From NCBI GenBank assembly GCA_963719505.1, contig CAVRCF010000005.1, positions 1,088,001-1,152,000 of the forward strand: 64,000 nucleotides of DNA, given 5' to 3'. The notes beneath the pieces are model-generated. The model was not told where the DNA came from. It ran no database searches and worked only from the letters and a program-made list of their open reading frames with translations. Shown here piece after piece: positions 28,813 through 48,489 of the stretch. Made by a program: the position numbers and the translations under genes. The DNA is from Halobacteriovoraceae bacterium. Its GTDB lineage: Bacteria > Bdellovibrionota > Bacteriovoracia > Bacteriovoracales > Bacteriovoracaceae. Each line of letters starts with the position of its first letter. Positions within the stretch are counted from its first letter, which is position 1.

Positions 28813-31242
28813 CTAGTTTGCAACCTGTGCCTGAGGCTTGTCCCCTTCGCCATCAAGTACCTTGAATGCTCTCTCCTTCATAAATTCTTCTGGAGATTGA
28901 AGATCTAATGCGATCTTTAATACTTCTTCAGCTTCTTTTACAGGATAGATATTCATTCCGGCTTTAATTTCGTCTGGTACTTTTGCTAAATCTTTCGCAT
29001 TCTTGAAAGGAATTACAACAGTTTGGATTCCAGCTTGTTTAGCAGCTAAAAGCTTCTCTTTTAAACCACCAATCGGCATAACTCTTCCTCTTAACGAAAT
29101 CTCACCAGTCATGGCAACATCTTGTCTTACAGGAATGCTTGCAATCGCGGAAGTTAAAGCAGTCGCCATGGTGATACCTGCACTTGGCCCATCTTTTGGT
29201 GTCGCACCATCTGGAACATGAACATGGATATCATTTTTATTATACCAGTCGTGATCAACACCTAAGCGATCTCCAATTGATCTAACATAACTCATTGCCG
29301 CTTTGGCTGATTCTTGCATAACGTCTCCAAGTTTACCTGTAACTTGAATTTTTCCTGTTCCTGGAATTGTTACGACTTCAATATGAAGTAACTCTCCACC
29401 AACGCTTGTATAAGCAAGACCATTAACAAGGCCTATCTCTGGTTGTTGTTCAATCATTGTTGATTCAAACTTAAGTGGCCCAAGATATTTCTCTAACGAT
29501 TTTTGTGTAATCGTATATTTCTTACCTTTTTCCACATCGTTCATAACAACATCAGTTGCAATCTTTCTAGCAATTGTATTCATGTATCTTTCAAGTCCAC
29601 GAACACCAGCTTCTCTAGTATATCCTCTAATGATTTTCATAAAGAATTTATCAGAAATACTCACTGGGTATTCAGAAAGACCATGATTTTTCACATGCTT
29701 TTTGAATAAGGTATTTTTTAGCGATTTGAAGTTTCTCAGCAGGTGTGTATCCAGCAATATTGATCATTTCCATTCTATCTCTAAGTGGTCCTGGAATTTT
29801 TCCAATATCATTTGCTGTCATAACAAACATAACTTTTGATAGATCGTATTCTGCTTCAATATAGTGATCGGTAAAGTTAACATTTTGTGCTGGATCTAGA
29901 ACTTCAAGCATTGCTGAAGCTTGGATCCCCTCTCATGTCTGAGCTCATTTTATCGATCTCATCTAAAAGGATAACTGGATTTCCTGTTCCCGCTTTTTTC
30001 ATCGCTTGCATGATCTTACCTGGCATCGCACCAACATAAGTTCTTCTGTGCCCACGAATCTCAGCTTCATCTCTTACACCACCCAGAGAGATTCTTTCGA
30101 ATTTTCTTCCCATTGATGTTGCAAGTGATTTACAGATTGAAGTTTTACCAACTCCTGGAGGACCTGCTAAACAAAGAATCGTTCCATTTGCACTTGAATC
30201 TTCAACTAAAGTTCTCACGGCCATGTATTCTAGAATTCTTTCTTTAACATCTTCAAGACCATAGTGATCTTCATCTAAAACTCTCTTTAGCATGTTTTAC
30301 ACTATTATCGTCTTTTGTGTACTCTTCCCATGGAAGTGAAGTCATCCAATCAATATAGTTTCTTACAACAGCAGACTCTGCTGACATAGGAGACATTGAC
30401 TTAAGTTTCTTGATTTCTTTTTCAACTTTCTCACGAGCCTCTTGTGGCATTTTCTTCGCGGCAAGTTTATCTTCCATCTCTCCAATCTCACCCTTTCCAT
30501 CTTCCTTGTTACCAAGTTCTTTTTGGATCGCGTTCATTTGTTCATTGAGATAGTATTCTTTCTGAGATTTTTCCATCTGTTGTTTAACGCGAGTTCTGAT
30601 TTTCTTCTCAACGTTAATAACTTCGATCTCCCCTTGCATTTTTTCTAAAAGAAGTTGAAGTCTTTGTTCAACATTGACAGCGTTAAGGATCTCTTGTTTT
30701 TCAGGAATCTTCATTGTTAAGTGAGCAACAATGATATCAGCAAGTCTTGAAGAATCAGTGATAGAAGAGATGCTCATAAGAAGTTCCGGTGGAATTCTCT
30801 TATTTAATTTTACGTATTGTTCGAAAACATTCTTAACGCTTCTAACAGTCGCCTCTGTTTCAACTTCTCCAGTTGCAACATCTTCACATTGATCAACGTC
30901 TGCGAAATAACCTTCTGCACGACATTCAAAGTCTGTGATACGAGCTCGATGTTTTCCTTCGATAAGAACTTTTACAGTGTTATCCGGTAAGCGAAGCATT
31001 TGGATGATATTTACAACGGTTCCAATATCGTAAACGTCACTTCTTTCTGGATTTAAAACACTAGCGTCTTTTTGAGTTACGAGAAATAATTCATTGCCAG
31101 CTTTTGCTGCTTTCTCAAGCGCTGCAATTGACTTTTCTCTTCCAACAAATAGCGGGACAACCATATGAGGAAAAATAATAACATCCCTTAGAGGAAGTAA
31201 AGGATAGTTCTTTGAATTTGATGATGACTTCTTGTCCGACAT
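28813..31242 (-). CDS. lon: ATP-dependent protease La (Lon), split by 3 apparent frameshifts
   Basis: [50 protein letters not shown] across four overlapping ORFs. Confidence 0.95.
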
Positions 31243-32447: not shown

Positions 32448-33785
32448 CTATGAAGCATCCTCTTCGACCTTCGCCGCACCTATGGCGCTTTTCTTAGGTT
32501 CCGGAGCAAGTTTTCTCTCACCTTCAACTAATCTTGGACTCTCTGTCCCATCAATTGAAGCTTTAGTGACGATGCATTTTGCTATCTTCTCATTGCTTGG
32601 AATTTCATACATTACATCAAGCATCGTCTGCTCAAGAATAGACCTAAGCCCACGAGCTCCAGTTTTCTTATTAATAGCAGTCTTAGCCACCTCTAAAAGA
32701 GCATCTTCTTCAAACTCTAGCTCAATACCATCAAACTCAAAAAGCTTTTGATATTGCTTTGTAATAGCGTTCTTTAGGTTTAGTTAAGAATTTGAACTAG
32801 ATGCTTCTTCATCAAGTTCTTGCAAGCATGGCATTCACGGGAAGACGTCCAATAAATTCAGGAATTAAACCAAATTTTGAAAGATCTCCGGACTCAATTC
32901 CACCCAGGTTTTCAATATTTGTTTTCTTCTACGTTCTTATCAGCTTGCTTTTTTCCCTGCAAGTCCAAGTGCTGGTTTTTTATTTTGTCTTTGCTCGATG
33001 ATTTTATCTAATCCAACAAATGCTCCAGCAACAATAAAAAGAATATTCTTAGTGTTTACTTGTAAAAATTCTTGTTGAGGATGCTTACGTCCACCTTTAG
33101 GAGGAACACTTGCTACAGTTCCTTCAATAAGTTTTAGCAGTGCTTGCTGAACACCTTCACCAGAAACGTCTCTCGTGATAGATGGGTTTTCAGACTTTCT
33201 TAGCAATCTTATCAATCTCATCAATATAGACGATCCCTCTTTGAGCTCGTTCAATATCGTAATCACAGTTTTGTAAAAGATTTAAGAATAATATTTTCAA
33301 CATCTTCACCAACATATCCTGCTTCTGTTAAGCTTGTTGCATCTGCAATCGCAAAGGGAACATTAAGATATTTTGCAAGAGACTGTGCAATCAAAGTTTT
33401 ACCAGAACCCGTTGGTCCCGCTAAAAGAATATTCGATTTCGCTAGTTCTACACTTATCTCCATCTTTTACCAGATGGTCTGTGAGCGATTCTTTTATAAG
33501 TGATTATGAACAGCAACAGAGATAATTTTCTTTGCTCTATCTTGTCCAATAACATAATTATCAAGATGCTCTTTAATCTCATGAGGCTTTGGAACATTGT
33601 CCAGAGCAGTTTTAGAAACCTGCTTAACAGAATCTTCGTAGATAATGTCGTTACAAAGTTCAATACATTCATCACAAATATAGACACCAGGACCTGCAAT
33701 TAAGCTTTTTTACTTCTTTTTGAGATTTTCCACAAAAGTTACAATGTAAGTGCTCCGTAACTTTCGCCTTGCTTTTTTACGTCAT
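32448..33785 (-). CDS. clpX: ClpX ATPase, multiple apparent frameshifts
   Basis: [73 protein letters not shown] in shifting frames. Confidence 0.93.
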
Positions 33786-34432
33786 TATTTTCCTCGTTTT
33801 ATTTTAGCGATTCTCTTATTTATCGACTCTGTTTTACCTTTAGGCTCAATGATTTTATCAATTAGACCTAACTCTTTTGCAGCTTTTCTGGACCTAGATA
33901 ATTATCTCTATCCATCGCTTCTTCATATTCTTCATAAGACATATCTCCAGAAGTATGATCAACATAAATTTGAGTAAGTTGTTGTTTTAAATCTTGAATT
34001 TCTTGTGCTTGAATTTGAATATCACTTGCCTGTCCTCTAGCTCCACCAAGAGGTTGGTGAATCATGATTCTAGAATGTGGAAGTAGCATATCTATTTCCT
34101 TTATGACCTGCGGATAAAAGAAGTGATCCCATTGAAGCTGCAAGTCCCACACAGTAAGTGTAAACCGGACAAGAAATGTGTTGCATAATATCGTAGATAC
34201 CAAGACCAGCGTAAACGCTTCCACCTGGACTATTAATATAGAAGTGAATCGGTGCTTCTGACATCTGATTGCTCTAAAAAAAGCATTTGAGCGATAAGAA
34301 GATTTGCAACTGTGTCGTTAACTTCTGTTCCTAAGAAAAATAATTCTATCTAAAAGAAGACGTAGAATAGATATCATATTGTCTCTCCCCTCTTGCCGTT
34401 TGTTCAATAACAACTGGATTTGGGATGTACAT
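33785..34432 (-). CDS. clpP: ClpP protease proteolytic subunit, multiple apparent frameshifts
   Basis: [57 protein letters not shown]; both ends approximate. Confidence 0.93.
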
Positions 34433-37302: not shown

Positions 37303-38415
37303 CTAAACGTCGAAATTAAAATCGAAAAGGCTGACATAGACTACGACTCTTTCCGAGGCTTGCTGATCTGCTTTTTCACCGATATCCACTCCATAGATAC
37401 CAGCATAGGTTTTAATGGCCCCAAGATCAAGCTTAATACCATAGCTATACTGTCCACTATTGAGCCCGGCCAGTACAGATAAAGCTGGGGTAAAGATAAG
37501 CTCAGTTCCAAGTCTCACCCTTTTTGAAAAATCCAGATCAAAGCTTTCAAGATTTCTAAGGTCAGCAGAGAACAACATCCCAAATCCCGTATGCTTGATA
37601 AGATAAGAGGCTCCAAAGTTTGCTTTCAATGGTTGAGACTGAACACTCGACTGCTTTGTTGAACTAGTCGTATTAAACTTCGTATAGGCATCTAAAAGAG
37701 AAAAGCCCATAGTAAAAAGGTTATTTCCTTTTCGCTTCACATAATCCAGCCCAAAGTCTACTCCCCACGCTGACCCTTTAGATTTTCCAAAGGCATCGGC
37801 TAATATATCAGAGTATTCAGAAATATCACCGGCGTTTTCTATCTGATCGATAAGATCAATGGAGCTAGAGCTCAATAAATTATACGTCCCATAAATTGAT
37901 TCTCTTTGAACGTATTTTACACTCATTCCAAATGCCAAATCTCCATTCAAGGGAAAACCATAACCCGCTATAAATCCACGGTCGTAGTGGTGATCGATAT
38001 CAAGCATAGGAGTATATCGATTAACCACATTCATATTTGTCTGATTATTAACAATCGCCGAGAACCCAAATCGACCAAGCTTGAAGCCTGGACTTGCATT
38101 CAATCCAATATGAATAGGTGTATCAACAAAGTTATCAAAAAACTCACTTGTCGTGCTTCCCGAATCTTCAAATTTATTTTCAGCAGTTAAAATATTTGTC
38201 ACTGTGACCTGAGGATTGATGGCCCAAAAAGACAGACCCTTGTGACGGGCTAAAATGGCTGGATTATAGTAGAGAGTGAATTCATCGTCCGCAATTGATG
38301 TGTAGGCATCTCCCATCAAAAGAGCTTTTGGTGAACGGGAAAAATATCGATCATTAAGAGCAAAAAGATTTGAACTAAAAATAAGAAGGATAAAGATCAA
38401 AGATGAATGCATCAA
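37303..38415 (-). CDS. Outer-membrane beta-barrel (TraF/PorV-like N-terminus)
   Basis: ALLMGDAYTSIADD...YYNPA motif; alternating beta strands; aromatic C-terminus. Confidence 0.7.
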   Translation of the reverse strand: MMHSSLIFILLIFSSNLFALNDRYFSRSPKALLMGDAYTSIADDEFTLYYNPAILARHKGLSFWAINPQVTVTNILTAENKFEDSGSTTSEFFDNFVDTPIHIGLNASPGFKLGRFGFSAIVNNQTNMNVVNRYTPMLDIDHHYDRGFIAGYGFPLNGDLAFGMSVKYVQRESIYGTYNLLSSSSIDLIDQIENAGDISEYSDILADAFGKSKGSAWGVDFGLDYVKRKGNNLFTMGFSLLDAYTKFNTTSSTKQSSVQSQPLKANFGASYLIKHTGFGMLFSADLRNLESFDLDFSKRVRLGTELIFTPALSVLAGLNSGQYSYGIKLDLGAIKTYAGIYGVDIGEKADQQASERVVVYVSLFDFNFDV

Positions 38416-39389
38416 TTATGGTTTCCTTCGATAAAAACTGAATAGAAGGCTTCCAATTGATTTTTATTCGTTGTGTTTGTCGTCGCAGTCGTTACACAAC
38501 TTGGGACATCCAAAAATGAGTCGTAAGCTGTCACGGCTGCACCGTCCCCCTTTGAAGAGAGATAAGCAGTCCCCGCCGATTTGATATCCTCAAGGGCGTC
38601 GAGAGCATCCTCAATATTTCCTAGATCACTGGTGTCTTGAGGAAGATCTAAATTAAATAAAAGATCATAGAAATTATTATAAAGAACAACACCCTCGCAC
38701 AGCTTTCTTTCATATTCAGAGTCTGATACGAGTATTGAGACATCACTATTTGAAGTCGTTGCACCGGTGCAAGAATCAGTATTTATTTCATCAAGGTAAT
38801 CATTATTAACATTGGCATAATTATACTGAGCAAGACAAACGGCTGAACTTCCCGAACCCGCTCCTTTAGATCCTGATGAATCCACATTTCCGTATGCGCC
38901 AAAGTATTTAGACAATAAAATTGTGGTAAGGAAAAAGGCCTGATAGTTAAGCTCTCCACCACCAGTTTCTCCAAACTTTTGCTTTCGTCCTAGTGACCCC
39001 TTAGTACTACTTGAGTTTTGGATAACTTCCAAAGCTTTCATAATATTAAGATACTTATCATCATCAGGCTGAGTCACCTCTTGACCAGCATCAAAAGAGG
39101 CGAGAATGGCAAAAAGATTTTGTGCTTGAGAGTCTAGAGCTCCCAGCTCATCAAGGACAGTTTCTAGCTCTCTATAGTTTGCTCGACACTGATAAACTGA
39201 AGCGTATAACGAGACATAAACTTTATCATCTGAATCTGGTGATATGCTGTCGAGGGCTTTCTTTGCTGCAGAACAATCTCCACTTGAGAGAAAGTGGAGG
39301 GCTTCTTTTTTTGCAGAAATGACTTCTTCTTCTTTGTTTGCACAAGATGTGGAGAAGATGAATAGAAGGCTTAATATAAAATATTTCAC
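38412..39389 (-). CDS. Hypothetical lipoprotein
   Basis: Lipobox-like STSC; helical, TPR-like N-terminus; coupled to the barrel gene. Confidence 0.72.
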   Translation of the reverse strand: MKYFILSLLFIFSTSCANKEEEVISAKKEALHFLSSGDCSAAKKALDSISPDSDDKVYVSLYASVYQCRANYRELETVLDELGALDSQAQNLFAILASFDAGQEVTQPDDDKYLNIMKALEVIQNSSSTKGSLGRKQKFGETGGGELNYQAFFLTTILLSKYFGAYGNVDSSGSKGAGSGSSAVCLAQYNYANVNNDYLDEINTDSCTGATTSNSDVSILVSDSEYERKLCEGVVLYNNFYDLLFNLDLPQDTSDLGNIEDALDALEDIKSAGTAYLSSKGDGAAVTAYDSFLDVPSCVTTATTNTTNKNQLEAFYSVFIEGNHN

Positions 39390-39435: not shown

Positions 39436-40656
39436 CTACTGATTTTTATTAGCAAGAAAAGTCGTCAACTTCTCCATTGCCTCGGTAAAAGGAGCAATTT
39501 CTAATGTCATGCTCATCCTTGCTGAATTTGGAAATCCGAAAGCTGCTCCTGGAACCAAAGCCACACCAGTCTGATCAAGTATATTTTTCACAAGCTCCAC
39601 GGAATAGTCTTTATCCTTTGAGTACTTCTCCGAAATTGGCATCCGACTAAAATCGATAAAGTAGTAAAAAGCAGAAGTCGTCTGATACCAACAATGAGAA
39701 AGATTAACTAGCCTAAAGCTTTCGCGCACGATCTCCGCGCACTGTCTCAATTGAACCTTTACCTGATCTAGAAAATTTTCTAGGTTTTCAAAATCAAATT
39801 CTATCAATGACTTTTGAATGAGACTATTAGCGCCAGAAGTCGTTTGACTCTGAATCTTCGCCATGGCATCAATAAGTGGCTTTTGAGCCGCGCAATACCC
39901 GATTCTTAAGCCTGTACTGGCCAACGACTTTGAAATACCATCGATAATGACCGTCTGAGCAAGTAAAGAGCGATCGTACTGGTAAAAATAAGTTGGCTTC
40001 GGATCAAAATATGAAATTTCACTATAGATCTCATCGGAGACAACAATCAAATCGGGATGTTCTTTTAAAAAAATAGCAAAGTCTTTCATCCACGCATCGT
40101 CGTAATGAATTCCCGCTGGATTATTAGGAGAATTAACAAGAATAGCTTTTGTTTTATTTGTGACAGCTTTTCTAATTTCATCGATATGAGGCATAAAGCG
40201 GTCAAAGGCATTAGAGCCCACGACCTTTGGTTCCCCTCCCCAAAACTTAATCATCTCCGGGTACGAAACCCAGTACGGTGTGAGGAGTATAACCTCGTCC
40301 CCGGGGTTGAGAATGGATCCAAAGAGATTGTACAAACAATGCTTTGATCCATTGCTGACGATAACACCAAAGTCCACTCCTAAGTCATCAAAAGATATTC
40401 CTCTTTTCTTTTCAATATGAGTCTTGATTTTTGAAGTGAGTTCTGGAAATCCTCTGACGGGACTGTACTGGTAACTTTTAAGAAAATTGAGTTGAGTTGA
40501 AACAACATGAATAAACTCACTGCTTGGTTTAAAAGGCAACTGACCTGCTGTCAGGTTATAAATATGCTGTCCACCCTTTGCCAGTTTATTAATCTGATCA
40601 TTGACTGATAAAGTGATGCTCTCTTTGGCACTTTCAACTCTTACGCTTAACTTCAT
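39436..40656 (-). CDS. PLP-dependent class I/II aminotransferase (aspartate aminotransferase-like)
   Basis: PYWVSY, NSPNNPAG, SDEIY, DGISKSLASTGLRIGY. Confidence 0.92.
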   Translation of the reverse strand: MKLSVRVESAKESITLSVNDQINKLAKGGQHIYNLTAGQLPFKPSSEFIHVVSTQLNFLKSYQYSPVRGFPELTSKIKTHIEKKRGISFDDLGVDFGVIVSNGSKHCLYNLFGSILNPGDEVILLTPYWVSYPEMIKFWGGEPKVVGSNAFDRFMPHIDEIRKAVTNKTKAILVNSPNNPAGIHYDDAWMKDFAIFLKEHPDLIVVSDEIYSEISYFDPKPTYFYQYDRSLLAQTVIIDGISKSLASTGLRIGYCAAQKPLIDAMAKIQSQTTSGANSLIQKSLIEFDFENLENFLDQVKVQLRQCAEIVRESFRLVNLSHCWYQTTSAFYYFIDFSRMPISEKYSKDKDYSVELVKNILDQTGVALVPGAAFGFPNSARMSMTLEIAPFTEAMEKLTTFLANKNQ

Positions 40657-40681
40657 GCTTACCTTTTTTAAAAACTAATTC

Positions 40682-41275
40682 TTAGTTTATATTGTAGTCG
40701 TAAAGAAACAAAAAGCTAGTCCCCTGTCTAAAGGATCTTGAGGGTTCCCCAAATAATGAATAAAAATCCAACTCTGGCATCGTCTTTTGACGACATGCTT
40801 CTATGATCGCTAGCCCTTTGAAGTCTGAGTCTAATATTTTCTTAAAAAATAACTTATATAAATCAATTTTCTCATAAGGTGGATCAAAGTAGATAAAGAC
40901 TCTTGTCTTTTCCAAAGCGTCGAGCTCAGCGTAAAAAGATTTAAACTTTTGAAACCAAATTCCAAAGTCTTCTTTGCTAATATCGATGGGATGACGAGGA
41001 AACTTTGATAAAAAATTTTCAGTATTTTTCTTCAAGACTCTAAAAACTTTTTCGCTTTTTTCTATACACAAAACAGGGTTTGCTCCCCTTGAGGAGGCTT
41101 CAATCCCTATGGAGCCTGAACCCGCGCAAAGATCGATAAAGTAAATACCATCAAGTTTTTGGTAAGAGTCAAAAAATCTTCTTCTTAAGAGGACTGAGGT
41201 CGGTCTAGTGAGATTTTCAGGGGGAACATCGAGACTAAAGCCTCGGGCAACTCCCCCTAATATTTTTAAAGACAT
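40682..41275 (-). CDS. rsmD: RsmD-family 16S rRNA m2G966 methyltransferase
   Basis: ILGGVARG, TRPT, DLCAGSGSIGIEASSRGA, FDPPY. Confidence 0.88.
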   Translation of the reverse strand: MSLKILGGVARGFSLDVPPENLTRPTSVLLRRRFFDSYQKLDGIYFIDLCAGSGSIGIEASSRGANPVLCIEKSEKVFRVLKKNTENFLSKFPRHPIDISKEDFGIWFQKFKSFYAELDALEKTRVFIYFDPPYEKIDLYKLFFKKILDSDFKGLAIIEACRQKTMPELDFYSLFGEPSRSFRQGTSFLFLYDYNIN

Positions 41276-41278
41276 TTA

Positions 41279-41773
41279 TTAAGCAACTTTTTTAACTGTA
41301 CTCGCTTGCCCTACAGGAAGAGTAAACTTTGCTCCACCCTCTAGCTCAATCTCAAATCCATTGTCGCTTATTTGAAGGCTCACTTCTGAACCATTAATCG
41401 AAAAAGAAAGCTCCATCTGCATATCGCCTTCAATTTTAAAATTCATAGCCGTGTTATTGGCAGAAGTTTTTGGTGAAGGTGTAAAAGGTGTTTTCTCTAA
41501 ATTAACTATATTGTGATGAGAATCATCATCAAATTTTTCAATTTTTTGTTGAGGTACTACTGATTCAACTGGCATCTTTGCCACTTGGTCCAGCAGGCTA
41601 TGTTCAGCAGAAGACTCTCTTTCCTCTTCATCTAAACTTGCAACTGATTCAGCTACTTCCTCTAGGCTAGGTTCGTGATCTTCGTCATTACCGTTATCTG
41701 AAAATTCTTTCTCAAGACTTTCTATCTCATTCATGATGTCTTCAAGTTCATCATCGTTGAATCCCTTATCCAT
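41279..41773 (-). CDS. Acidic hypothetical protein
   Basis: AGGAGA RBS; 164 aa. Confidence 0.75.
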   Translation of the reverse strand: MDKGFNDDELEDIMNEIESLEKEFSDNGNDEDHEPSLEEVAESVASLDEEERESSAEHSLLDQVAKMPVESVVPQQKIEKFDDDSHHNIVNLEKTPFTPSPKTSANNTAMNFKIEGDMQMELSFSINGSEVSLQISDNGFEIELEGGAKFTLPVGQASTVKKVA

Positions 41774-41850
41774 TTGACTCTCCTAGTTACTGGTCAATAA
41801 TTACTGTTGTGAGTTAGAGAGCTAACTCTCTAAAATTCTATACGCAGTAC

Positions 41851-41878
41851 CTATCGAATAGAATTAACGCAAACTTAA
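41851..41878 (-). promoter_or_regulatory. Candidate sigma28 promoter
   Basis: Minus strand TTAAG-N15-TTCGATAG. Confidence 0.5.
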
Positions 41879-42004
41879 GTAAATTTTGCGTATGTAAGTT
41901 TTTAGTTTTTTAATGACAATTCTTGCCTATCTCGGTACTAATACCTTCCACAACACAGAGATAACCAACTAATTTTATTTAAATTTTTTGGAGAGAGAGG
42001 ATAA

Positions 42005-44833
42005 TTGAATAAGAAGGGCTTCAATGCCAATAACTGGTTCCAGGCGGACCCAGATGGCGGCAAATCGAATTCATTCACAAACAAAGACTTAAGTAAGTAC
42101 ATAAGTCCTATAACTGAACCCTCTGCATTTCAGAATAAAGACCTCTACCAAACAGATTCCAATTCAAGCTTAAACAAGTTTTTTACTCCCGGTTGGAAGG
42201 GTGAATCTCTTATTTCAAAAGATGTTAAGAAGTTTCTGTCGGCACTTATCGCAATCCATAAAGATGTCAAAGACGAGATCTACAAACAGCGCCTGAGTAA
42301 TAAAGTTAGAATGGGTATTTTTGATGAGTTTATCTCCTATGCTGATTGCAAAGCCATTCACTTCACAGGAATAGACGACCCTCAAACACTTTGGAGCGAG
42401 ATCCAAAATCAAGACTCAAAATACAAAGCTGAGATCGACAGATTCGTAGAGGTTTACACCTTTAGAATTGCTGTCATATTTATTCTTAAAATAAGGTTCA
42501 TTAGCGTCCTTTTGAAAAAGACAAACCAAGAATTTGATATCAATAAGCTTGTGTACCCCAATTCATTTTTAACCGGTGTTTTTAAACAAGGTGGTTCTAA
42601 AGAATTGAAATCCAAAGCTTTAGAACAAAATATTTTTAGTTGGTATCGTCCAAATGATCATCTAACAGATAAACTGATATCTCTTTACGATATCTGTAAT
42701 ACTTTGAGCATTACTGAGATTATTAAAAATATTTCAATCGAATCTGAAAAGATAATGGATAAGAAAACTCACTACTCTCATGCTTTGTCTCATAAGAATT
42801 TTGGGCTTTTTGTAAACTCTCTTCTTATCAACTTTCCTCTTTGGCTAAATAACTTTAATAATCGATTTAACTCACCGTTCATTTTGCCAAAAGATGGAAT
42901 GGAAGTTATCAGCTGTAAGTTTGATGGTGATTTTTTAGAGTCACTATCTCTGTCTCACTGGCTCGCTCAAGAAAACAATAAAAATATTCAATGGGATCAA
43001 ATCCTTTGTCCCGATTTTAAAAGCACCGGTTTTGAAAATGGCCCTTACATGAGCCTTGTCAATGAGCTGCAGTTCCTCACCTTTTTGGCCCAAATTGCTA
43101 ACAACCAAGGAAGAGAGACAACACAGTTTATCTCAAACGTCGCCTCGGGGCACTTGAGCAATAGGAAAAACTCTAACTCCCTTCAAAGAAATATGCTTTT
43201 TAACGAATTGTCACTTAATCAATCAACTTACGATCGAGTGATTATTAATGTTAGTGATTTTCCGAAAAGGAATATTCAGCATTACCTCATCAATAAAATT
43301 GAATCCCAAGCAGATTGTTTAAAAGAAAACGGTCTCATTTACCTTTTCAGCTCCAAGAGACTTTTTGTTGATAGCCAAAAAGACAAAATTGACTCTCTTT
43401 TAACCAAGTATAAACTAGAAGGTTCTTTTGACTTAGAAGAGCTTAAAGGAAAGGGAGAGGTTGGCTCTCATATTTATATTTTTTCAAAAGCTAAGCATTT
43501 TGAAAGAATGAATAATCATAATTCAAAGCAGTCTTGTTTTAATTTTAGAATGAATGGAAATTTAAACTCTTTTCAGTATTTCAATGTTTTAACGATGCTT
43601 CTTCAAGATTTCTTTTTTGCAAACCTAAATGATATCCCTTCAATGTATCACAAAGAGATGAATGGCTTTGAAATCGAGTTTTTTCAAGATGCCATTGTTG
43701 ATGGTCGACTTATTCATTCATCATCAAAAGATTCGTCAAAAATAACACACCCACTTTTCTTCAACAATTTAATGAAGTCATGTGAAGCCTTCGACTACTT
43801 TTTTGATATTCAAGCATCTAACTTAGAGAACAATAACCATTACAAAGAAGAACCTATTTTTGCGATGACAAATGTCTCTAGAGATAAAGCTCCCTTTGTT
43901 GCTATCGTCGATAACAGGGCAAAAGATAGTTCTGTGAAAGTTGAGATCATTCACTCCAGTGGACTAGAAGCAAAAGCCTATGAATACGGACACAGTATGT
44001 GTCACTATTTTGATATCACTCCAAAGTGGCCACATATGGATTTAAATGCCATTAGAGATTTTATCGAAAGTGCTATTGGAGCACAAATTGTTGATCTTAC
44101 TTTTAACAATGAAGCTCGTAAGGCAAAAGCAAACTTGTCGAAACTTCTTATTCCAAAGGTTTTCAGCACATCTGATAAAATACCAGAGCATATAGAACAA
44201 GGGGTTAAACTTCTCTGTTCAAGTGCTGAAGAAATACTAAACCTTCATCCATCAAATATTGAAAAGCAATTTACATTTATTGAAAGAATGATTGGAGATC
44301 TGGCCAAAACTTATCCAATGGATACTATCTCTAAGCTTTCACATTTTAAAAGAAGTATCTCCCAGTGTATTGATGTACTCGGAATAAAAAAGAAAAGAAG
44401 TGTCGTCAACTTTAATAATCCAATTATAAGAACACCTCTTCTTCTATCTAAAACATCACCTCTTTATCCTTCAAATAAAGATGTTTATTTTGAATTCAAT
44501 TCAGATGTAAGGGCGACGATTTCAAAAGTAGTTCAAAAGTCAGTAGAAGAAGATGGATTCACTAGAGAGATTCTCGAGCTACACAGTGAAGAAGAACTCA
44601 TCCTCACGATTGATTCGGGAGTAGAGATGATTCAGTTTTTAAGTTTTATCTTTGAATCTTGTAAAGGTGCTCAGGTATCTAATATTCTCCAATCCATTGA
44701 GATCCCAAGTTTAACCGACCTCCAAAGTATAATTAAGTCTTTTGAGTCAATGAAGCGCACGCTTGTTAGCATTGTTGACAAGACCACACCACTACTTGAA
44801 AGAACTCTTACCCAAACGATCACAAGAAAATAA
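42005..44833 (+). CDS. Large protein resembling a degenerate Type IIG / N6-adenine DNA methyltransferase scaffold
   Basis: 942-aa intact ORF with ordered echoes of MTase motifs but no NPPY or DPxxGxG (see findings). The CDS is secure; the family call is tentative. Confidence 0.5.
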   Translation: MNKKGFNANNWFQADPDGGKSNSFTNKDLSKYISPITEPSAFQNKDLYQTDSNSSLNKFFTPGWKGESLISKDVKKFLSALIAIHKDVKDEIYKQRLSNKVRMGIFDEFISYADCKAIHFTGIDDPQTLWSEIQNQDSKYKAEIDRFVEVYTFRIAVIFILKIRFISVLLKKTNQEFDINKLVYPNSFLTGVFKQGGSKELKSKALEQNIFSWYRPNDHLTDKLISLYDICNTLSITEIIKNISIESEKIMDKKTHYSHALSHKNFGLFVNSLLINFPLWLNNFNNRFNSPFILPKDGMEVISCKFDGDFLESLSLSHWLAQENNKNIQWDQILCPDFKSTGFENGPYMSLVNELQFLTFLAQIANNQGRETTQFISNVASGHLSNRKNSNSLQRNMLFNELSLNQSTYDRVIINVSDFPKRNIQHYLINKIESQADCLKENGLIYLFSSKRLFVDSQKDKIDSLLTKYKLEGSFDLEELKGKGEVGSHIYIFSKAKHFERMNNHNSKQSCFNFRMNGNLNSFQYFNVLTMLLQDFFFANLNDIPSMYHKEMNGFEIEFFQDAIVDGRLIHSSSKDSSKITHPLFFNNLMKSCEAFDYFFDIQASNLENNNHYKEEPIFAMTNVSRDKAPFVAIVDNRAKDSSVKVEIIHSSGLEAKAYEYGHSMCHYFDITPKWPHMDLNAIRDFIESAIGAQIVDLTFNNEARKAKANLSKLLIPKVFSTSDKIPEHIEQGVKLLCSSAEEILNLHPSNIEKQFTFIERMIGDLAKTYPMDTISKLSHFKRSISQCIDVLGIKKKRSVVNFNNPIIRTPLLLSKTSPLYPSNKDVYFEFNSDVRATISKVVQKSVEEDGFTREILELHSEEELILTIDSGVEMIQFLSFIFESCKGAQVSNILQSIEIPSLTDLQSIIKSFESMKRTLVSIVDKTTPLLERTLTQTITRK

Positions 44834-44884: not shown

Positions 44885-46489
44885 GTGAAAAATGAAATTC
44901 TCGAACTGAGAAGAAGAATTTTTAAATACTTAAAACATAAAGCTTTAAGCTTTGAAGGCGAAGTCTCGCACGAGATGGTAATGTATCGCTTTGATCAAAC
45001 TCGTTACGCAAAAAGACCATTTGAAGAGACTACGATTGATGAGCTCAAGGCAAAAGTTTCTGCTGCAGATACTATCTATCTTGGTGACTTTCACACCTTT
45101 GACCAAAATATTCGAAATGTTCTTAGAATCATCAAAGTTATTTTAAAGTCTGAAGGTAAATGTGTTCTGGCCCTTGAAATGGTAAGTGCAGACTTTCAGT
45201 TTTATATTGATACTTATATGCAAGGTCATATCACAGACTTGGAGTTTTTAGAGTCTATCGACTACAACGAGTCTTGGCGCTTTCCATGGAGTCATTACAA
45301 GCTGATCTTTGAATTAGCCAAAGAAAACAATATTAAGATTATTGGTCTCAATACACAAGGTAGTCTGAAGCAAAGAGATCAATTTGCAGCAAAGCTAATT
45401 GATATGTCTCTCAAGAAAGATAAGGACACGAAAGTTCTCGTCCTCTATGGAGAACTGCATCTCACTCCCAATAAAATTCCAATGATGGTTTCTGGAAAAA
45501 ATAAAGACATAAAATCAGTTATTATTCACCAGAACCTAGACGAGGTTTATTGGAAGCAAGTCGAGTTGAATCAAGAAAGTAAAGTGGTAAAGTTTGATGA
45601 ATCAGAGTATTGCATCAACTCCGCTCCCCCGTGGATAAAGTACGAAAGTATGATCTATTGGTATGAGAATGTTTCCTCTGATCCTGACTTTGATATCCAT
45701 GAATATATTATTGAAAATGGTAAAAAAATTTTTGGCGATGACACCCATGAAAACTTTTTTCTTATTTGCCAAGAAATGATTAGTGCCATCCATATAGACT
45801 TTGACTCTGATGATCTAGAAGACTTTAATCTTCATGACCATACCAGCTTGGAGTATGTTGAAGACAAAGTTATCTCTCTGAAGTCGAAGGTGCTTGTCCA
45901 GTTTTACAACTATCTGTTTGAAACAGGCCAATCTTTTAAGCTACCTGATCAAACCACATTCTATTGCTCTAGCTATTCAATGAACAGGATCTCTTATCTT
46001 GCTGGAATTCACATCTTTCACTATTTTTTTCAAAAGAAAAATTCTCCCGTTAAAAATATTCTCAAAGACGGCTCGAACTCCGATCAATTTCTTCTTTTTT
46101 GCCTTGAAGGTCTTTTTGGTTTCTTCTTTTCAAAAGTTATTAATCCTCACAGGAAATGTGAGATGTATCTTGATCTAAGACAAAAGGTCTCGGTTGGCGA
46201 AGAAGTTTCAAGCAAGAATCTTTCTCATATTGCCGCCGATATTCTCGACGGAGAGAGTTTAAAGACAGCTCTCGAGAGCCTAAACTTAAGCCGTATCCAC
46301 GAAGTTTCACTTCACGTTGGGCATATCCTTGGTGAGTACCTATATGAAAACATCTTTAATCAAAAGAAAAGTGTCGATTTAGAAAACGACTTTCTGAATA
46401 CGAATCTTTGTGAGTTTCAATTCTCCAAGATGAAATCTATTCTTCTTAAAGATATTCCATATCAAGAGCACCAAAAAAGGTATTTCTAG
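44885..46489 (+). CDS. ChaN/EreA-like domain protein with C-terminal extension
   Basis: IYLGDFHT, LALEMV, WRFPWSHYKLIFELAKENNIKIIGLN, VLYGELHL. Confidence 0.7.
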   Translation: MKNEILELRRRIFKYLKHKALSFEGEVSHEMVMYRFDQTRYAKRPFEETTIDELKAKVSAADTIYLGDFHTFDQNIRNVLRIIKVILKSEGKCVLALEMVSADFQFYIDTYMQGHITDLEFLESIDYNESWRFPWSHYKLIFELAKENNIKIIGLNTQGSLKQRDQFAAKLIDMSLKKDKDTKVLVLYGELHLTPNKIPMMVSGKNKDIKSVIIHQNLDEVYWKQVELNQESKVVKFDESEYCINSAPPWIKYESMIYWYENVSSDPDFDIHEYIIENGKKIFGDDTHENFFLICQEMISAIHIDFDSDDLEDFNLHDHTSLEYVEDKVISLKSKVLVQFYNYLFETGQSFKLPDQTTFYCSSYSMNRISYLAGIHIFHYFFQKKNSPVKNILKDGSNSDQFLLFCLEGLFGFFFSKVINPHRKCEMYLDLRQKVSVGEEVSSKNLSHIAADILDGESLKTALESLNLSRIHEVSLHVGHILGEYLYENIFNQKKSVDLENDFLNTNLCEFQFSKMKSILLKDIPYQEHQKRYF

Positions 46490-46926
46490 TGAAAATTCTC
46501 ATTCAAAGAGTTTTAAAATGTGACGTTACTATTGATAAACAATTGTATTCCTCAATAGACAAAGGATTACTCCTCTATATCTGCTTTGAGAGTGAAGACA
46601 AAATCGAGGTAATCGATAAAGCCATCAATAAAATTCTGGCCCTTCGGATTTTTGAAGATGACGAGGGAAAAATGAATCAAAATATTATTCAAAAAGACTT
46701 TTCTCTTATGTCTGTAAGCCAATTCACTCTCAGCTGGAATGGCCAAAAGGGAAATAGACCAAGTTTTGAAAATTCTATGAAACCTGATGATGCCTCAAAA
46801 TTTTATGAGCTTTTCAATAATAAGTTACAAGAGAAATTTGGTAATATGGAATCGGGTGTCTTTGGAGCCGACATGAAAGTAAGCTCCATTAACGATGGAC
46901 CGGTGACATTTTTTCTTTCGTTTTAA
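46489..46926 (+). CDS. dtd: D-aminoacyl-tRNA deacylase
   Basis: IQRV, LRIFEDDEGKMN, SQFTL, GNRPSF, FGADMKV, NDGPVT. Confidence 0.96.
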   Translation: MKILIQRVLKCDVTIDKQLYSSIDKGLLLYICFESEDKIEVIDKAINKILALRIFEDDEGKMNQNIIQKDFSLMSVSQFTLSWNGQKGNRPSFENSMKPDDASKFYELFNNKLQEKFGNMESGVFGADMKVSSINDGPVTFFLSF

Positions 46927-48272
46927 AGTCCTGCATTTAAAGATCTGAGGATATCCTTTTTTGATCCCTTGACTACTTTTGACACAACCTTTTGATTCTT
47001 CACGACTTCAAAAAGAACTTCAATTTCAGATTCAATTTTATCCGAATCCAAATTCATTTTATTTGTGAGCTTTATACTTGCCGAAAGATCTTTTAACATC
47101 TCACTAACCAGTTGAAGATTTAAGTCGACCTCACTTTCGCTGGAGTCCCCTGAATTGATAAAATTTAACTCCTCAGCTGAGAAGTAATAATTCTTCATTT
47201 TTATTTTCAAATAAGCCGTCTCACCCAAGGCTTTTGTTTTTAGCCCGATAGCTTCAACACTTTCTCTGCTAGCAGCATAATTGAGAAGGTTGCATAAAGC
47301 TTGCTCAACAATCTCTGATTCGCCCCTTACAAAGAAGTCATCTTCTAGAGCTGTTTCTAACATAATCCCTCTTGAGAAGGCTTTCTGAGAAAGCCCATCA
47401 ATCGCAAGCGTCATTGCATTTTGATAATCTGTTGACGCTCTATAATCTTCAACGGGCTCACTATGGATAGGTGTCGTTGAATCCACATCAACACCGTCGT
47501 TGGACTCAAACTCCCTATAGGCTTTTTCAAGAAGATCGGAATGATAGCGATTAAACAAGGCATAGGTTTTTGGCATCTCTATTCTCGATAGGATGTTATC
47601 TAATGCTCTTTCAATATTGGCCGAAAGAAACTCGCTATTTGATGCCATAATTCTATCGGACTCTTCTTCGATTTTTCTAAAAAGACTCTTATTTTTAAAA
47701 CGGTTATAAAAACTCAGTCCCACCATGAGGAAAGCCACGATAACTCCGGCCATTGAAGCTCCAAACATCATCGTCGATGTCGATTTTTTTGATTCTACTC
47801 TACTCGCAATCTTTCCTTGTACTGATTCTTTTAAAGATTCTAATGATGAATATTTATTAATGATATTGGAACTACTCAAGTCTAAATCAGATCCCGAAGA
47901 TAATTTAAGAAGCTTGGTCGCTTTTTCATGAAACCAGTGGATGTCACTGTTTATCGCTGCTAAAGATCTTTTGCCATCAACAAAACTCGAGCCATAAACT
48001 GATCCAAACTGTTTCGATGCATAGTTAAAACAATCTGATGTTGTTGCCATAAAATCTTTTTGTAAATAACTAGAAGATAAGTCTTTTATCATCAATGCCG
48101 TAAAGGTTTGAGAAACTCTTTGAAAACAAGTTCCAATTCCGCTTGATAAGGACATCTGTTTCACAGCACTTTGACTTGCTAAATTTCCAGAGACGACAAG
48201 AGAGACCGTAGCTATGACGACCGCGCCCAGCATAATTTGAGCACCTTTTAGGTGAGACTTCAGATTCTTCAT
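46923..48272 (-). CDS. Membrane protein with periplasmic domain and degenerate HATPase-like tail
   Basis: Two TM helices; VRGESEIVEQALCNLLNYA is N-box-like; no H-box or G-boxes. Confidence 0.55.
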   Translation of the reverse strand: MKNLKSHLKGAQIMLGAVVIATVSLVVSGNLASQSAVKQMSLSSGIGTCFQRVSQTFTALMIKDLSSSYLQKDFMATTSDCFNYASKQFGSVYGSSFVDGKRSLAAINSDIHWFHEKATKLLKLSSGSDLDLSSSNIINKYSSLESLKESVQGKIASRVESKKSTSTMMFGASMAGVIVAFLMVGLSFYNRFKNKSLFRKIEEESDRIMASNSEFLSANIERALDNILSRIEMPKTYALFNRYHSDLLEKAYREFESNDGVDVDSTTPIHSEPVEDYRASTDYQNAMTLAIDGLSQKAFSRGIMLETALEDDFFVRGESEIVEQALCNLLNYAASRESVEAIGLKTKALGETAYLKIKMKNYYFSAEELNFINSGDSSESEVDLNLQLVSEMLKDLSASIKLTNKMNLDSDKIESEIEVLFEVVKNQKVVSKVVKGSKKDILRSLNAGL

Positions 48273-48489
48273 AAACCCTTCTTTTTTAAAATCCATTTTA
48301 AGAATGCCCCTCGTTTAAGAAACGTTTAGACATGGTGTAATTGTCGCAATATCCGGCTTTATTCGTCAAGCTAGGCAATTAATACTTTCGTGATTTTAAC
48401 AACTTAGCGGTAAAAAAGAAGATATTACAATGTGCGTCATTAGGACTATTCATTCATATATTAAAGACTTATAATAAAGGTGGAGAATA

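Follow-up and report, generated by a model that had tools for sequence, protein, structure and literature searches.

Gamma-class N6-adenine DNA methyltransferases are known in several arrangements with the modules that recognize their target sites. In Type I HsdM/HsdS systems (EcoKI, EcoR124I, and the structures 3ufb, 2okc, and 1yf2), methyltransferase and recognition module lie on separate M and S subunits; in the Type IIG/IIL enzymes BpuSI, MmeI, and DrdV, they share a single chain that also carries an N-terminal PD-(D/E)xK nuclease domain; and in M.TaqI, M.BseCI, and CamA, which are active enzymes with the motif NPPY, there is no nuclease. Here, we describe a methyltransferase-shaped protein of 942 amino acids (aa) encoded by an open reading frame (ORF) at 42005..44833 (+) of a 64,000-nt stretch of contig CAVRCF010000005.1, from the Halobacteriovoraceae bacterium assembly GCA_963719505.1 (family Bacteriovoracaceae, phylum Bdellovibrionota). 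This whole stretch is referred to below as the window, and all positions are those of the window. The original prediction, made by a model from the sequence alone, had taken the protein for a catalytically dead Type IIG restriction-modification scaffold in the chromosomal backbone. What is new at this locus is a methyltransferase-plus-recognition architecture turned lineage-wide core protein that lacks the catalytic signature.

The likeness to HsdM extends over the helical domain and the core (residues ~70-579; VIA-align Z 10.9-12.0), and an HsdS chain matches the C-terminal part of the studied protein (residues 584-942) at the middling Z of 8.4. In contrast to HsdM and HsdS, the studied protein is one polypeptide, gives no PF02384, HsdM_N, or hhalign match, lacks both GxG and NPPF/NPPY, has a conserved rather than hypervariable recognition domain, and is encoded by a core gene instead of a patchily distributed one, with no hsdR or hsdS partner genes. 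It shares the single-chain methyltransferase-plus-recognition layout of BpuSI, MmeI, and DrdV, which are among its structural matches, but has neither their N-terminal nuclease domain nor the catalytic methyltransferase motifs. Domain order and the lack of a nuclease liken it to M.TaqI, M.BseCI, and CamA, with which it aligns from residue ~251 to the C-terminus, but it is longer, lacks their motifs, and has an extra HsdM-like domain at the N-terminus and a second module at the C-terminus. The lmo1582/YtxK-like putative adenine methyltransferase (2f8l), the best VIA-align match both for the model of this protein and for that of a distant orthologue, consists of 323 residues (helical domain plus core) with no recognition module, and no sequence similarity to it was detected. 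The longest structural coverage of the studied protein, 585 residues, is by PglX (BrxX), an active methyltransferase in the six-gene defence system BREX; the studied locus has no BREX genes and no PADLOC match.

METTL14 (with EPPL in place of DPPW) and DNMT3L are eukaryotic pseudo-methyltransferases in which selection has kept the fold after loss of the catalytic motif and which act by binding. Both are obligate partners of an active paralogue, whereas the genome that encodes the studied protein has no strong N6_Mtase paralogue.

Results

A predicted methyltransferase core with a recognition module

An AlphaFold2 model was built on an alignment of 49 sequences (mean predicted local distance difference test, pLDDT, 78.8; predicted template modelling score, pTM, 0.61), searched against the Protein Data Bank (PDB) with Foldseek, and compared pairwise with VIA-align, the source of all Z scores given here. 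The core strands of the model span residues 300-308, 332-338, 409-416, 439-449, 469-482, and 489-495, with more beta/alpha elements to ~580 and a mixed domain at residues 581-725. Foldseek returned 52 PDB chains at E <= 0.001, headed by BpuSI, a Type IIG enzyme (E 1.7e-6), with HsdM, CamA, M.BseCI, and BrxX/PglX next.

Pairwise alignment gave its best score for lmo1582 (2f8l; Z 12.8, 285 residues aligned, model residues 70-538), followed by M.BseCI (Z 12.2, 370 aligned, 251-942), HsdM 3ufb (Z 12.0, 357 aligned, 70-579), DrdV (Z 11.1, 369 aligned, 41-573), BpuSI (Z 10.5, 499 aligned, 62-942), MmeI (Z 9.4, 341 aligned, 69-572), BrxX (PglX; Z 9.1, 585 aligned, 69-942), M.TaqI (Z 8.4, 300 aligned, 263-722), and HsdS 1yf2 (Z 8.4, root-mean-square deviation, rmsd, 7.8, 261 aligned, 584-942). 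The alignment with CamA (Z 10.5), like that with M.BseCI, extends to the C-terminus (residue 941/942), and against the HsdM chains 3ufb, 7vru, and 2okc, the aligned ranges begin at residues 63-74.

The predicted architecture is that of an HsdM-like N domain, a gamma-class N6-adenine methyltransferase core, and a recognition module, with the all-helical domain equivalent in the model to the HsdM N-terminal domain or the Type IIG connector domain. This helical domain contains the motif QN[IF][FY]SWY[RK]P, which is common to a distant clade of orthologues described below and whose W213 is present in 124/124 members. The C-terminal part comprises helices (726-800), a second small beta-rich module (801-901), and a long terminal helix (902-942), an arrangement that, as modelled, resembles HsdS at the middling Z of 8.4 to 1yf2; the secondary structure of this HsdS-like module is compatible with two long helices between two recognition domains, and there is no Methylase_S Pfam match.

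The gamma-class fold with an N-terminal helical domain had been proposed from the sequence and is borne out by AlphaFold2, Foldseek, and VIA-align, and the region described as a TaqI_C-type recognition domain does contain, in the model, a TaqI/CamA/HsdS-like module (M.TaqI, Z 8.4). The Type IIG assignment stands in so far as BpuSI is the first Foldseek match, but there is no nuclease and the best Z scores are to HsdM-type and orphan methyltransferases. Residues 1-68 have pLDDT <50 and residues 69-290 form helices only, without a beta sheet; alignments start past the nuclease domains of MmeI (at chain residue 161) and of DrdV (at 143, with the distant orthologue). Because it has no nuclease domain, the protein is not a full Type IIG enzyme.

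The catalytic motif and its surroundings

The ORF list and its translation confirmed an intact 942-aa frame, with a TTG start and a TAA stop, and placed the peptides that the original prediction had quoted: RFISVLLKK (residues 164-172), NIFSWY (209-214, nt ~42629), THYSHAL (255-261), EVISCKFDGDFLESL (300-314, nt 42902), YDRVIINVSDF (409-419, nt 43229), LKENGLIYLFSSKRLF (439-454), HIYIFSK (489-495), and FIESAIGAQ...NLSKLLIP (686-717, nt 44060-44155). The order of these segments matches the secondary-structure elements of the predicted methyltransferase fold, and it is more than chance because it coincides with a fold that matches solved gamma-class adenine methyltransferases. The proposed motif order thus agrees with the elements of the model, but the residue equivalences were not confirmed by profile-profile comparison: when the family profile was compared by hhalign with eight bona fide N6_Mtase proteins of related genomes, all of which carry NPP[YFW], there was no match (probability 0.4%), and a profile of the distant clade likewise had no profile-profile match to real N6_Mtase proteins. 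The motif-by-motif register is therefore unconfirmed by sequence. Motif placement is inferred from the strand order in the model rather than from residue-level structural alignment, and conservation was counted in 49 aligned members and in 124 diverse representatives at 50% identity.

At motif I (beta1 300-308, loop, and helix 311-324), where GxG is canonical, the family reads S-C-K-[FY]-x-G-D-[YF]-L-E-S. The canonical F/D-x-G-x-G is absent, and the loop [FY]-x-G-D keeps a single glycine, G308 (49/49 and 124/124), followed by D309 in 45/49 and 88/124. At motif II (beta2 332-338), which canonically has, at the strand end, an acidic residue that binds the ribose of S-adenosylmethionine (SAM), the family reads L-C-P-D-F; C335 is present in 49/49, and position 337, which would be the motif II acidic residue to judge from the model, is D in 44/49 and D or E in 46/49 and 91/124. 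The claim that the SAM-binding glycines are gone is thus right for the lost GxG but too broad, given G308 in every representative and an acidic residue after beta2 in 91 of the 124.

The canonical (D/N/S)PP(Y/F/W) of motif IV (beta4 409-416) has its place taken by Y-D-R-V-V-L-N-[LIV]-x-x-[FYL]-P-K-N-N. All 49 aligned members have N-[LIV]-x-x-[FYL]-P at this site and none PP(Y/F/W); N415, at the position of the NPPY asparagine, is found in 49/49 and 100/124, and N423 in 49/49 and 119/124. The pattern [DNS]PP[YFWH] occurs at the motif IV site in 0 of 261 clade members, and elsewhere in three of these proteins (positions 831, 18, and 48). Judged by the sequences of its members, the canonical catalytic motif is missing from the entire family, and the loss of PPY that had been proposed for the one protein holds at this site in 49/49 and in the 261 members. 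Motif V/VI (beta5 439-449) reads L-K-x-N-G...S-S-K-K-L-F, G482-K483-G484 is present in 49/49, a YSH...S segment lies at the motif X position within the all-helical domain, and the model of this clade has no strand at the beta3/motif III position.

The motif region is not degenerate, and the former pocket is where conservation is highest. Core residues 291-500 have 55% mean pairwise identity, with conservation of 90% or more in 54/210 columns (26%); the corresponding figures are 45% and 17% of columns for the helical N domain and 44% and 28/145 columns (19%) for the first recognition-like module, and the long helices of the C-terminal part are the least conserved (28-31% pairwise identity). Within the first recognition-like module, H582, P583, G662, Y668, K674, G692, Q694, L715, and P717 are at least 95% conserved among the 124 members. 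Recognition domains of restriction systems are hypervariable, and a conserved recognition domain is the opposite pattern.

Searches of sequence libraries and literature

Family libraries gave the 942-aa protein no name: there was no Pfam family at E <= 1 and no PADLOC family at E <= 10, and the only NCBIfam match, LIC_11502_fam (E 0.057), at 14 bits against a cut-off of 75, is a sub-threshold chance match. Searches of PDB sequences with phmmer and with the profile of 49 homologues returned antibody noise only. Twenty diverged family members and two distant orthologues likewise had no significant Pfam family, PF07669 and PF02384 included. Language-model neighbours of the protein are clusters with N6_Mtase, Eco57I, and Methylase_S (score 0.93, 167-181 shared features), which is a lead and not proof.

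Among the titles listed by full-text literature searches, none is on such a protein. A comparative-genomics study of the Bdellovibrionota (PMC11656739) gives 564 gene clusters specific to Bacteriovoracaceae, and the passages of its text that matched our search do not name this family. In the libraries and papers searched, the family is without description and is annotated only as "hypothetical protein", in line with the original prediction, which knew of no account of such a protein.

A core gene under purifying selection

Profile search found the gene in 100/100 sampled genomes of the window's family, as one full-length frame in nearly all; the exceptions are split at contig ends. Search with the single protein found it in 22/24 genomes of the family, the two misses being 66% complete, and in 0/16 genomes of other families. 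By comparison, PF02384 genes are present in only 6/24 genomes of the family. The gene is single-copy in its own genome, where the best PF02384 match has 22.7 bits and lies in a frame with a stop, PF07669 matches are below cut-off, and there is no strong N6_Mtase. Among the candidates scored, the family has 275 clusters at 90% identity, and it has 233 representatives at 50% identity, none with a Pfam domain or a name beyond "hypothetical protein". Homologues are ~925-985 aa long, and nearly all family members 880-1050 aa.

Related loci come from metagenome-assembled genomes (MAGs) labelled Bacteriovoracaceae, Halobacteriovoraceae, and Bacteriovoracia, and orthologues are also present in Peredibacter sp. 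HCB2-198 (a complete genome) and Bacteriovorax sp. DB6_IX, records titled non-MAG. One MAG titled Flavobacteriaceae contains a full-length orthologue of 48% identity (locus L085) and is probably a mislabelled or chimeric bin. In one genome of the same genus, a second frame of 128 aa (G002:C85:86888-87268) beside the full-length copy matches residues 815-941 at 61% identity; it could be a contig-edge fragment or a partial duplicate.

Against a 91%-identical relative, the nonsynonymous rate (dN) is 0.055 with synonymous sites saturated (proportion of synonymous differences, pS, 0.73; nominal synonymous rate, dS, ~2.6), and dN is lowest, at 0.034, in the Rossmann core (residues 291-500). No plasmid or phage relatives were found by tblastn in 72,556 plasmid and 50,697 phage records. 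The neighbourhood from 28 to 58 kb is one of housekeeping genes (Lon, ClpXP, PhoH-PIN, PilZ, glutathione synthetase, a MiaB-like radical SAM enzyme, and others), and no hsdM, hsdS, or hsdR, BREX, or PADLOC genes were found within it. GC content is 0.33-0.35 over the ORF and 0.35-0.40 around it, with no sharp break.

The gene is a single-copy, vertically inherited core gene under strong purifying selection, and not a mobile or defence gene. Its assignment to the backbone is upheld by its presence in all 100 genomes, its conserved synteny, the selection acting on it, and the lack of plasmid or phage relatives; the survey of homologues and synteny with dN/dS that had been proposed as a check gave conserved synteny and the low dN against saturated dS, and no homologue was found to keep NPPY. 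The fold retained, the catalytic residues replaced, and purifying selection are together the pattern of a pseudoenzyme, and the protein would on this pattern be inactive.

A distant orthologous clade

Two marginal profile matches outside the family proved to be ORFs of ~890 aa that are divergent from the same aminotransferase gene, and their products, P0263 and P0264, are homologues (E 4e-96). The clade they define has proteins of ~890-1000 aa in at least 85 clusters at 90% identity, all hypothetical, from MAGs labelled Bdellovibrio sp., Oligoflexia, Bdellovibrionales, Bdellovibrionia, and Bacteriovoracia. By family (coded), the distant-clade profile matches 56/57 genomes of f14, 17/17 of f15, 8/9 of f7, 7/7 of f21, and 7/8 of f23, as well as many single-genome families. 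It gave no match in f6 (0/34), f9 (0/53), f13 (0/27), f4 (0/20), or f11 (0/14), and the rsmD-coaD-aminotransferase locus in one genome of each of these five has no divergent gene of ~900 aa; in other families, "not found" means not found with these two profiles and does not imply absence.

Profile, synteny, and structure link the two clades. The distant-clade profile weakly matches the orthologue of the studied gene in three genomes of the window's family, and weak matches between the two clades are reciprocal when both profiles are used. Aligned with hhalign, the clade profiles give one collinear alignment of 785 columns (4-934 vs 31-921; E 5.7e-5, probability 66%) that includes a shared QN[IF]YSWY[KR]P motif. 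The order [aminotransferase]-[coaD]-[rsmD]-[small acidic protein] <-> [studied gene] recurs in both. An AlphaFold2 model of P0264 (pLDDT 80.4) has the same fold and matches methyltransferases more strongly: 2f8l at Z 20.2 (rmsd 3.7, 303/323 aligned), HsdM 2okc at 19.1 (HsdM range Z 17-19), CamA at 18.6, DrdV at 18.2, M.BseCI at 17.5, and M.TaqI at 15.7.

The distant clade is also without NPPY. Its beta4 ends in E-E, and [DNS]PP[YFWH] occurs in 2/87 of its proteins (positions 359 and 56), never at the motif IV site. Behind its first strand it retains P286/G291, and behind its second an invariant W-x-G-x-E. The two clades have no residue in common at motif IV, which speaks against a conserved methyl-transfer chemistry. 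A reading of an in-frame TGA as selenocysteine in distant orthologues ("1 TGA inside match") was rejected, as the TGA is the natural stop in the six loci translated.

The gene and its neighbours

The TTG start is credible because a purine-rich Shine-Dalgarno-like run lies 5' of it (41990-42001) and residues 3-12 (KKxFxAxxW[FL]) are kept at the N-termini of homologues. These residues form one of two conserved short motifs in the disordered tail, the other being F-x-P-G-W-K-G-E-S (residues 60-68); in the alignment of homologues, W64 and G66 are invariant, and conservation reaches 90% or more at F6, W11, F60, P62, G63, and S68. The sigma-70-like match upstream scores 10/12 and is weak evidence for a promoter, because the number of such matches in the intergenic region (18) equals the shuffle mean (17.8). 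Feature coordinates are collected in Table 1.

Table 1. Domains and inferred motif positions of the studied gene (42005..44833) and the genes around it
Feature	Position in window	Strand	Remarks
Class I/II aminotransferase	39436..40656	-	PF00155, E 1.6e-43; adjoins distant orthologues, anchors synteny
RsmD-like 16S rRNA methyltransferase	40682..41275	-	PF03602, E 6.7e-26; same position in related loci
Small acidic protein, 164 aa, no family	41279..41773	-	No Pfam match; first gene of small protein-rsmD-aminotransferase operon
Divergent intergenic region, 231 bp	41774..42004		Holds Shine-Dalgarno-like run and sigma-70-like match 41774-41801
Disordered tail, residues 1-68	42005..42208	+	pLDDT <50
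All-helical domain, residues 69-290	42209..42874	+	Helices only in AlphaFold2 model
Rossmann-like methyltransferase core with beta/alpha extension, residues 291-580	42875..43744	+	Most conserved part
Motif I position (beta1, loop, helix), residues 300-314	42902..42946	+	Placement inferred from model
Motif IV position (end of beta4), residues 409-423	43229..43273	+	Replaces (D/N/S)PP(Y/F/W)
First recognition-domain-like module (TaqI/CamA/HsdS-like), residues 581-725	43745..44179	+	Strongly conserved
C-terminal part, residues 726-942	44180..44830	+	Model secondary structure
ChaN/Tiki-like gene	44885..46489	+	PF04187, E 1.8e-23; 51 bp 3' of studied gene
dtd, D-aminoacyl-tRNA deacylase	46489..46926	+	PF02580, E 9.1e-49; start overlaps ChaN-like stop

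Pfam identification of the neighbours agrees with the flanks originally described, non-mobile genes with the rsmD operon on the divergent side and a ChaN-like gene and dtd downstream. The studied gene, the ChaN-like gene, and dtd are probably one transcript because the gap is 51 bp, there is no terminator-like site between the first two genes, and the start of dtd overlaps the gene before it. A ChaN-like orthologue lies directly downstream in 6/8 other family loci and, in locus L062 of another family, at a distance of one further gene, and it is not adjacent in most of the distant-clade loci examined; dtd follows the studied gene in some loci only. Only residues 56-161 of the 534 of the ChaN-like protein match PF04187, and the ~370 remaining are without a family. 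Its orthologues are 523-554 aa long in six family loci, and the one in L062 is 587 aa.

The small acidic protein is found by phmmer at the same position in 11/16 loci, other families included. An amphipathic helix at its N-terminus (F-N-D-x-E-L-x-D-I-M-x-E-I-E-x-L-E-K-E) and a beta module of ~50 aa at its C-terminus are conserved, the acidic linker between them is variable, and its Atlas neighbours are Bdellovibrionota hypotheticals (scores 0.85-0.88). Predicted as a complex, residues 69-942 and the small protein's two conserved modules scored 0.00, which lends binding no support and gives no verdict either way.

Several further observations concern the window rather than the gene. The rsmD gene abuts the aminotransferase gene (40656-40682), whereas nine related loci scanned with Pfam have a coaD-like gene (PF01467, 157-170 aa) between the two; the gene seems to have moved, because a coaD-like frame of 156 aa (E 6e-20) lies on contig C1 of the genome. 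Elsewhere, the rsmD-coaD pair occurs without the studied gene in five genomes of five other families. The lon protease gene lies in four consecutive ORFs at 28813-31242 (-), namely 30271-31242 (LON_substr_bdg), 29904-30293 (AAA), 29672-29911, and 28813-29757 (Lon_lid and Lon_C), and this split indicates frameshifts, by assembly error or in a pseudogene. At 32448-34264 (-), the ORFs that match ClpX-type AAA_2 (32940-33266, 108 aa) and ClpP (33868-34224, 118 aa) are only short fragments, and this region looks frameshifted as well. The genome is 83.5% complete by marker genes, to which such frameshift-like breaks may contribute. An ORF of 457 aa at 46923-48296 (-) has no significant Pfam family; its orthologue in L053 has the ATPase domain of histidine kinases (HATPase_c, E 7.3e-9), and it may be a diverged sensor kinase. 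Downstream of the aminotransferase gene, at 37303-39389 (-), lie genes for proteins of 325 aa (lipoprotein-like start) and 370 aa (signal-peptide-like start) with no Pfam family; both are syntenic across the family, and the 370-aa one is so in other families too.

Discussion

Our favoured reading, held with moderate confidence, is that the modelled protein descends from a gamma-class N6-adenine DNA methyltransferase and its recognition module, has been domesticated, and works by binding, most likely to DNA, without methylating. It presumably no longer methylates the N6 of adenine. The ancestor would have been an adenine methyltransferase fused to a recognition module, with no nuclease. The present protein would clamp nucleic acid between its core and its recognition module, the likeliest target being duplex DNA with a single fixed sequence or structure, and the remodelled pocket (G308, D/E337, N415, N423, S457, G484, and Y491) may, in place of methyl-transfer catalysis, accommodate a flipped base or a ligand of the adenosine type. 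The protein would be transcribed together with the ChaN-like gene and dtd and act as a constitutive chromosomal binding factor, such as a regulator or a reader or marker of specific sites. A fuller scenario, in which a methyltransferase-plus-recognition protein was recruited early in the Bdellovibrionota and turned into a non-methylating, sequence-specific chromosome-binding factor needed by every Bacteriovoracaceae cell, is improbable as a whole. In this scenario, the protein might mark or shield the predator's own DNA by binding, and not by methylation, while the DNA of the prey is degraded, or it might read a base or an adenosine-type ligand in the pocket.

Several points weigh against a non-methylating DNA-binding derivative. 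Sequence profiles fail to link the family with real methyltransferases, and its homology to them is drawn from predicted structures and the embedding search; for the C-terminal third, homology to HsdS depends on the match with the middling Z of 8.4. DNA binding is suggested by the predicted fold alone. The recognition-like parts have net charges near zero or negative (-0.3 and -3.1), so a strongly basic DNA-binding surface is not favoured. Position 419, where an aromatic residue would be expected to stack on a flipped base, is not conserved as such, with L in 53 and F in 30 of the 124 members. The rsmD and dtd context fits an RNA-related role just as well. Finally, because the glycine (G308, 124/124), the acidic residue (337, 91/124), and the asparagine (N415, 100/124) are retained, cofactor binding and even some catalysis are possible.

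This last point leads to the alternative that survives best, although we think it unlikely: an active SAM-dependent methyltransferase with a non-canonical site, a housekeeping orphan enzyme whose substrate would be a fixed DNA site, RNA, or something else. Conservation within the protein is highest in the pocket region, with G308 invariant, 337 acidic in 91, N415 present in 100, and N423 in 119 of the 124 members; the W-x-G-x-E and P286/G291 of the distant clade resemble motifs II and I; and NPPY is also missing from many class I methyltransferases with other target atoms. On the other side, no member has the PP(Y/F/W) that, to our knowledge, every characterised N6-adenine or N4-cytosine enzyme of this fold uses. 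The two clades have nothing in common at motif IV (N-[LIV]-x-x-[FYL]-P in one, E-E in the other), the model lacks a strand at the beta3/motif III position, and no Pfam methyltransferase matches even at E <= 1.

Decidedly unlikely is a non-catalytic protein-protein scaffold that has lost its nucleic-acid function and acts, for example, with the ChaN-like protein or through its N-terminal motifs. The neutral to negative recognition-like modules, the conserved short linear motifs of the disordered tail, and the co-oriented, tightly spaced ChaN-like gene in the window and in 6/8 other family loci are all consistent with such a role. But the recognition-like domain has many residues conserved at 95% or more (K674, Q694, H582, and Y668 among them), which fits a specific ligand, and most of the distant-clade loci examined have no adjacent ChaN-like gene.

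Quite improbable, in our estimate, is a pseudo-methyltransferase directed at RNA or the ribosome, that is, an rRNA- or tRNA-binding or assembly protein. Even in distant families the gene keeps its divergent position next to the rsmD operon, dtd is transcribed in the same direction, and some rRNA methyltransferases double as assembly factors. Yet every strong structural match is to a DNA methyltransferase that has a DNA-recognition domain, rsmD and coaD form a pair that is widely conserved independently of the gene and occurs without it in five genomes, and dtd follows the gene in some loci only. An ordinary restriction-modification or defence gene in decay, which the restriction-type fold without catalytic motifs might suggest, is effectively refuted and was rejected on conservation and selection: the gene is in 100/100 family genomes with a full-length frame in nearly all and dN/dS far below 1, its synteny is a fixed housekeeping one with no nuclease, helicase, or PADLOC family nearby, and it has no plasmid or phage relatives and no homologue that keeps NPPY.

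For the family, the finding is of some practical consequence. Comprising ~233 clusters at 50% identity, to which the distant clade adds at least 85 at the 90% level, and represented by no Pfam, NCBIfam, or PADLOC model, this unnamed family is worth a model of its own, and the non-MAG records with orthologues, Peredibacter sp. HCB2-198 and Bacteriovorax sp. DB6_IX, may represent cultured strains. Restriction-modification methyltransferases are normally mobile and patchy, with fast-evolving recognition domains, whereas in these predatory bacteria the same architecture is a constrained core gene. If the protein is indeed inactive and binds a specific target, as the domesticated derivative proposed here would, it would clearly exemplify, in bacteria, how a defence-type enzyme can be domesticated as a nucleic-acid-binding pseudoenzyme with a housekeeping role, and would be a bacterial counterpart of the eukaryotic pseudo-methyltransferases that stands alone, without an active paralogue.

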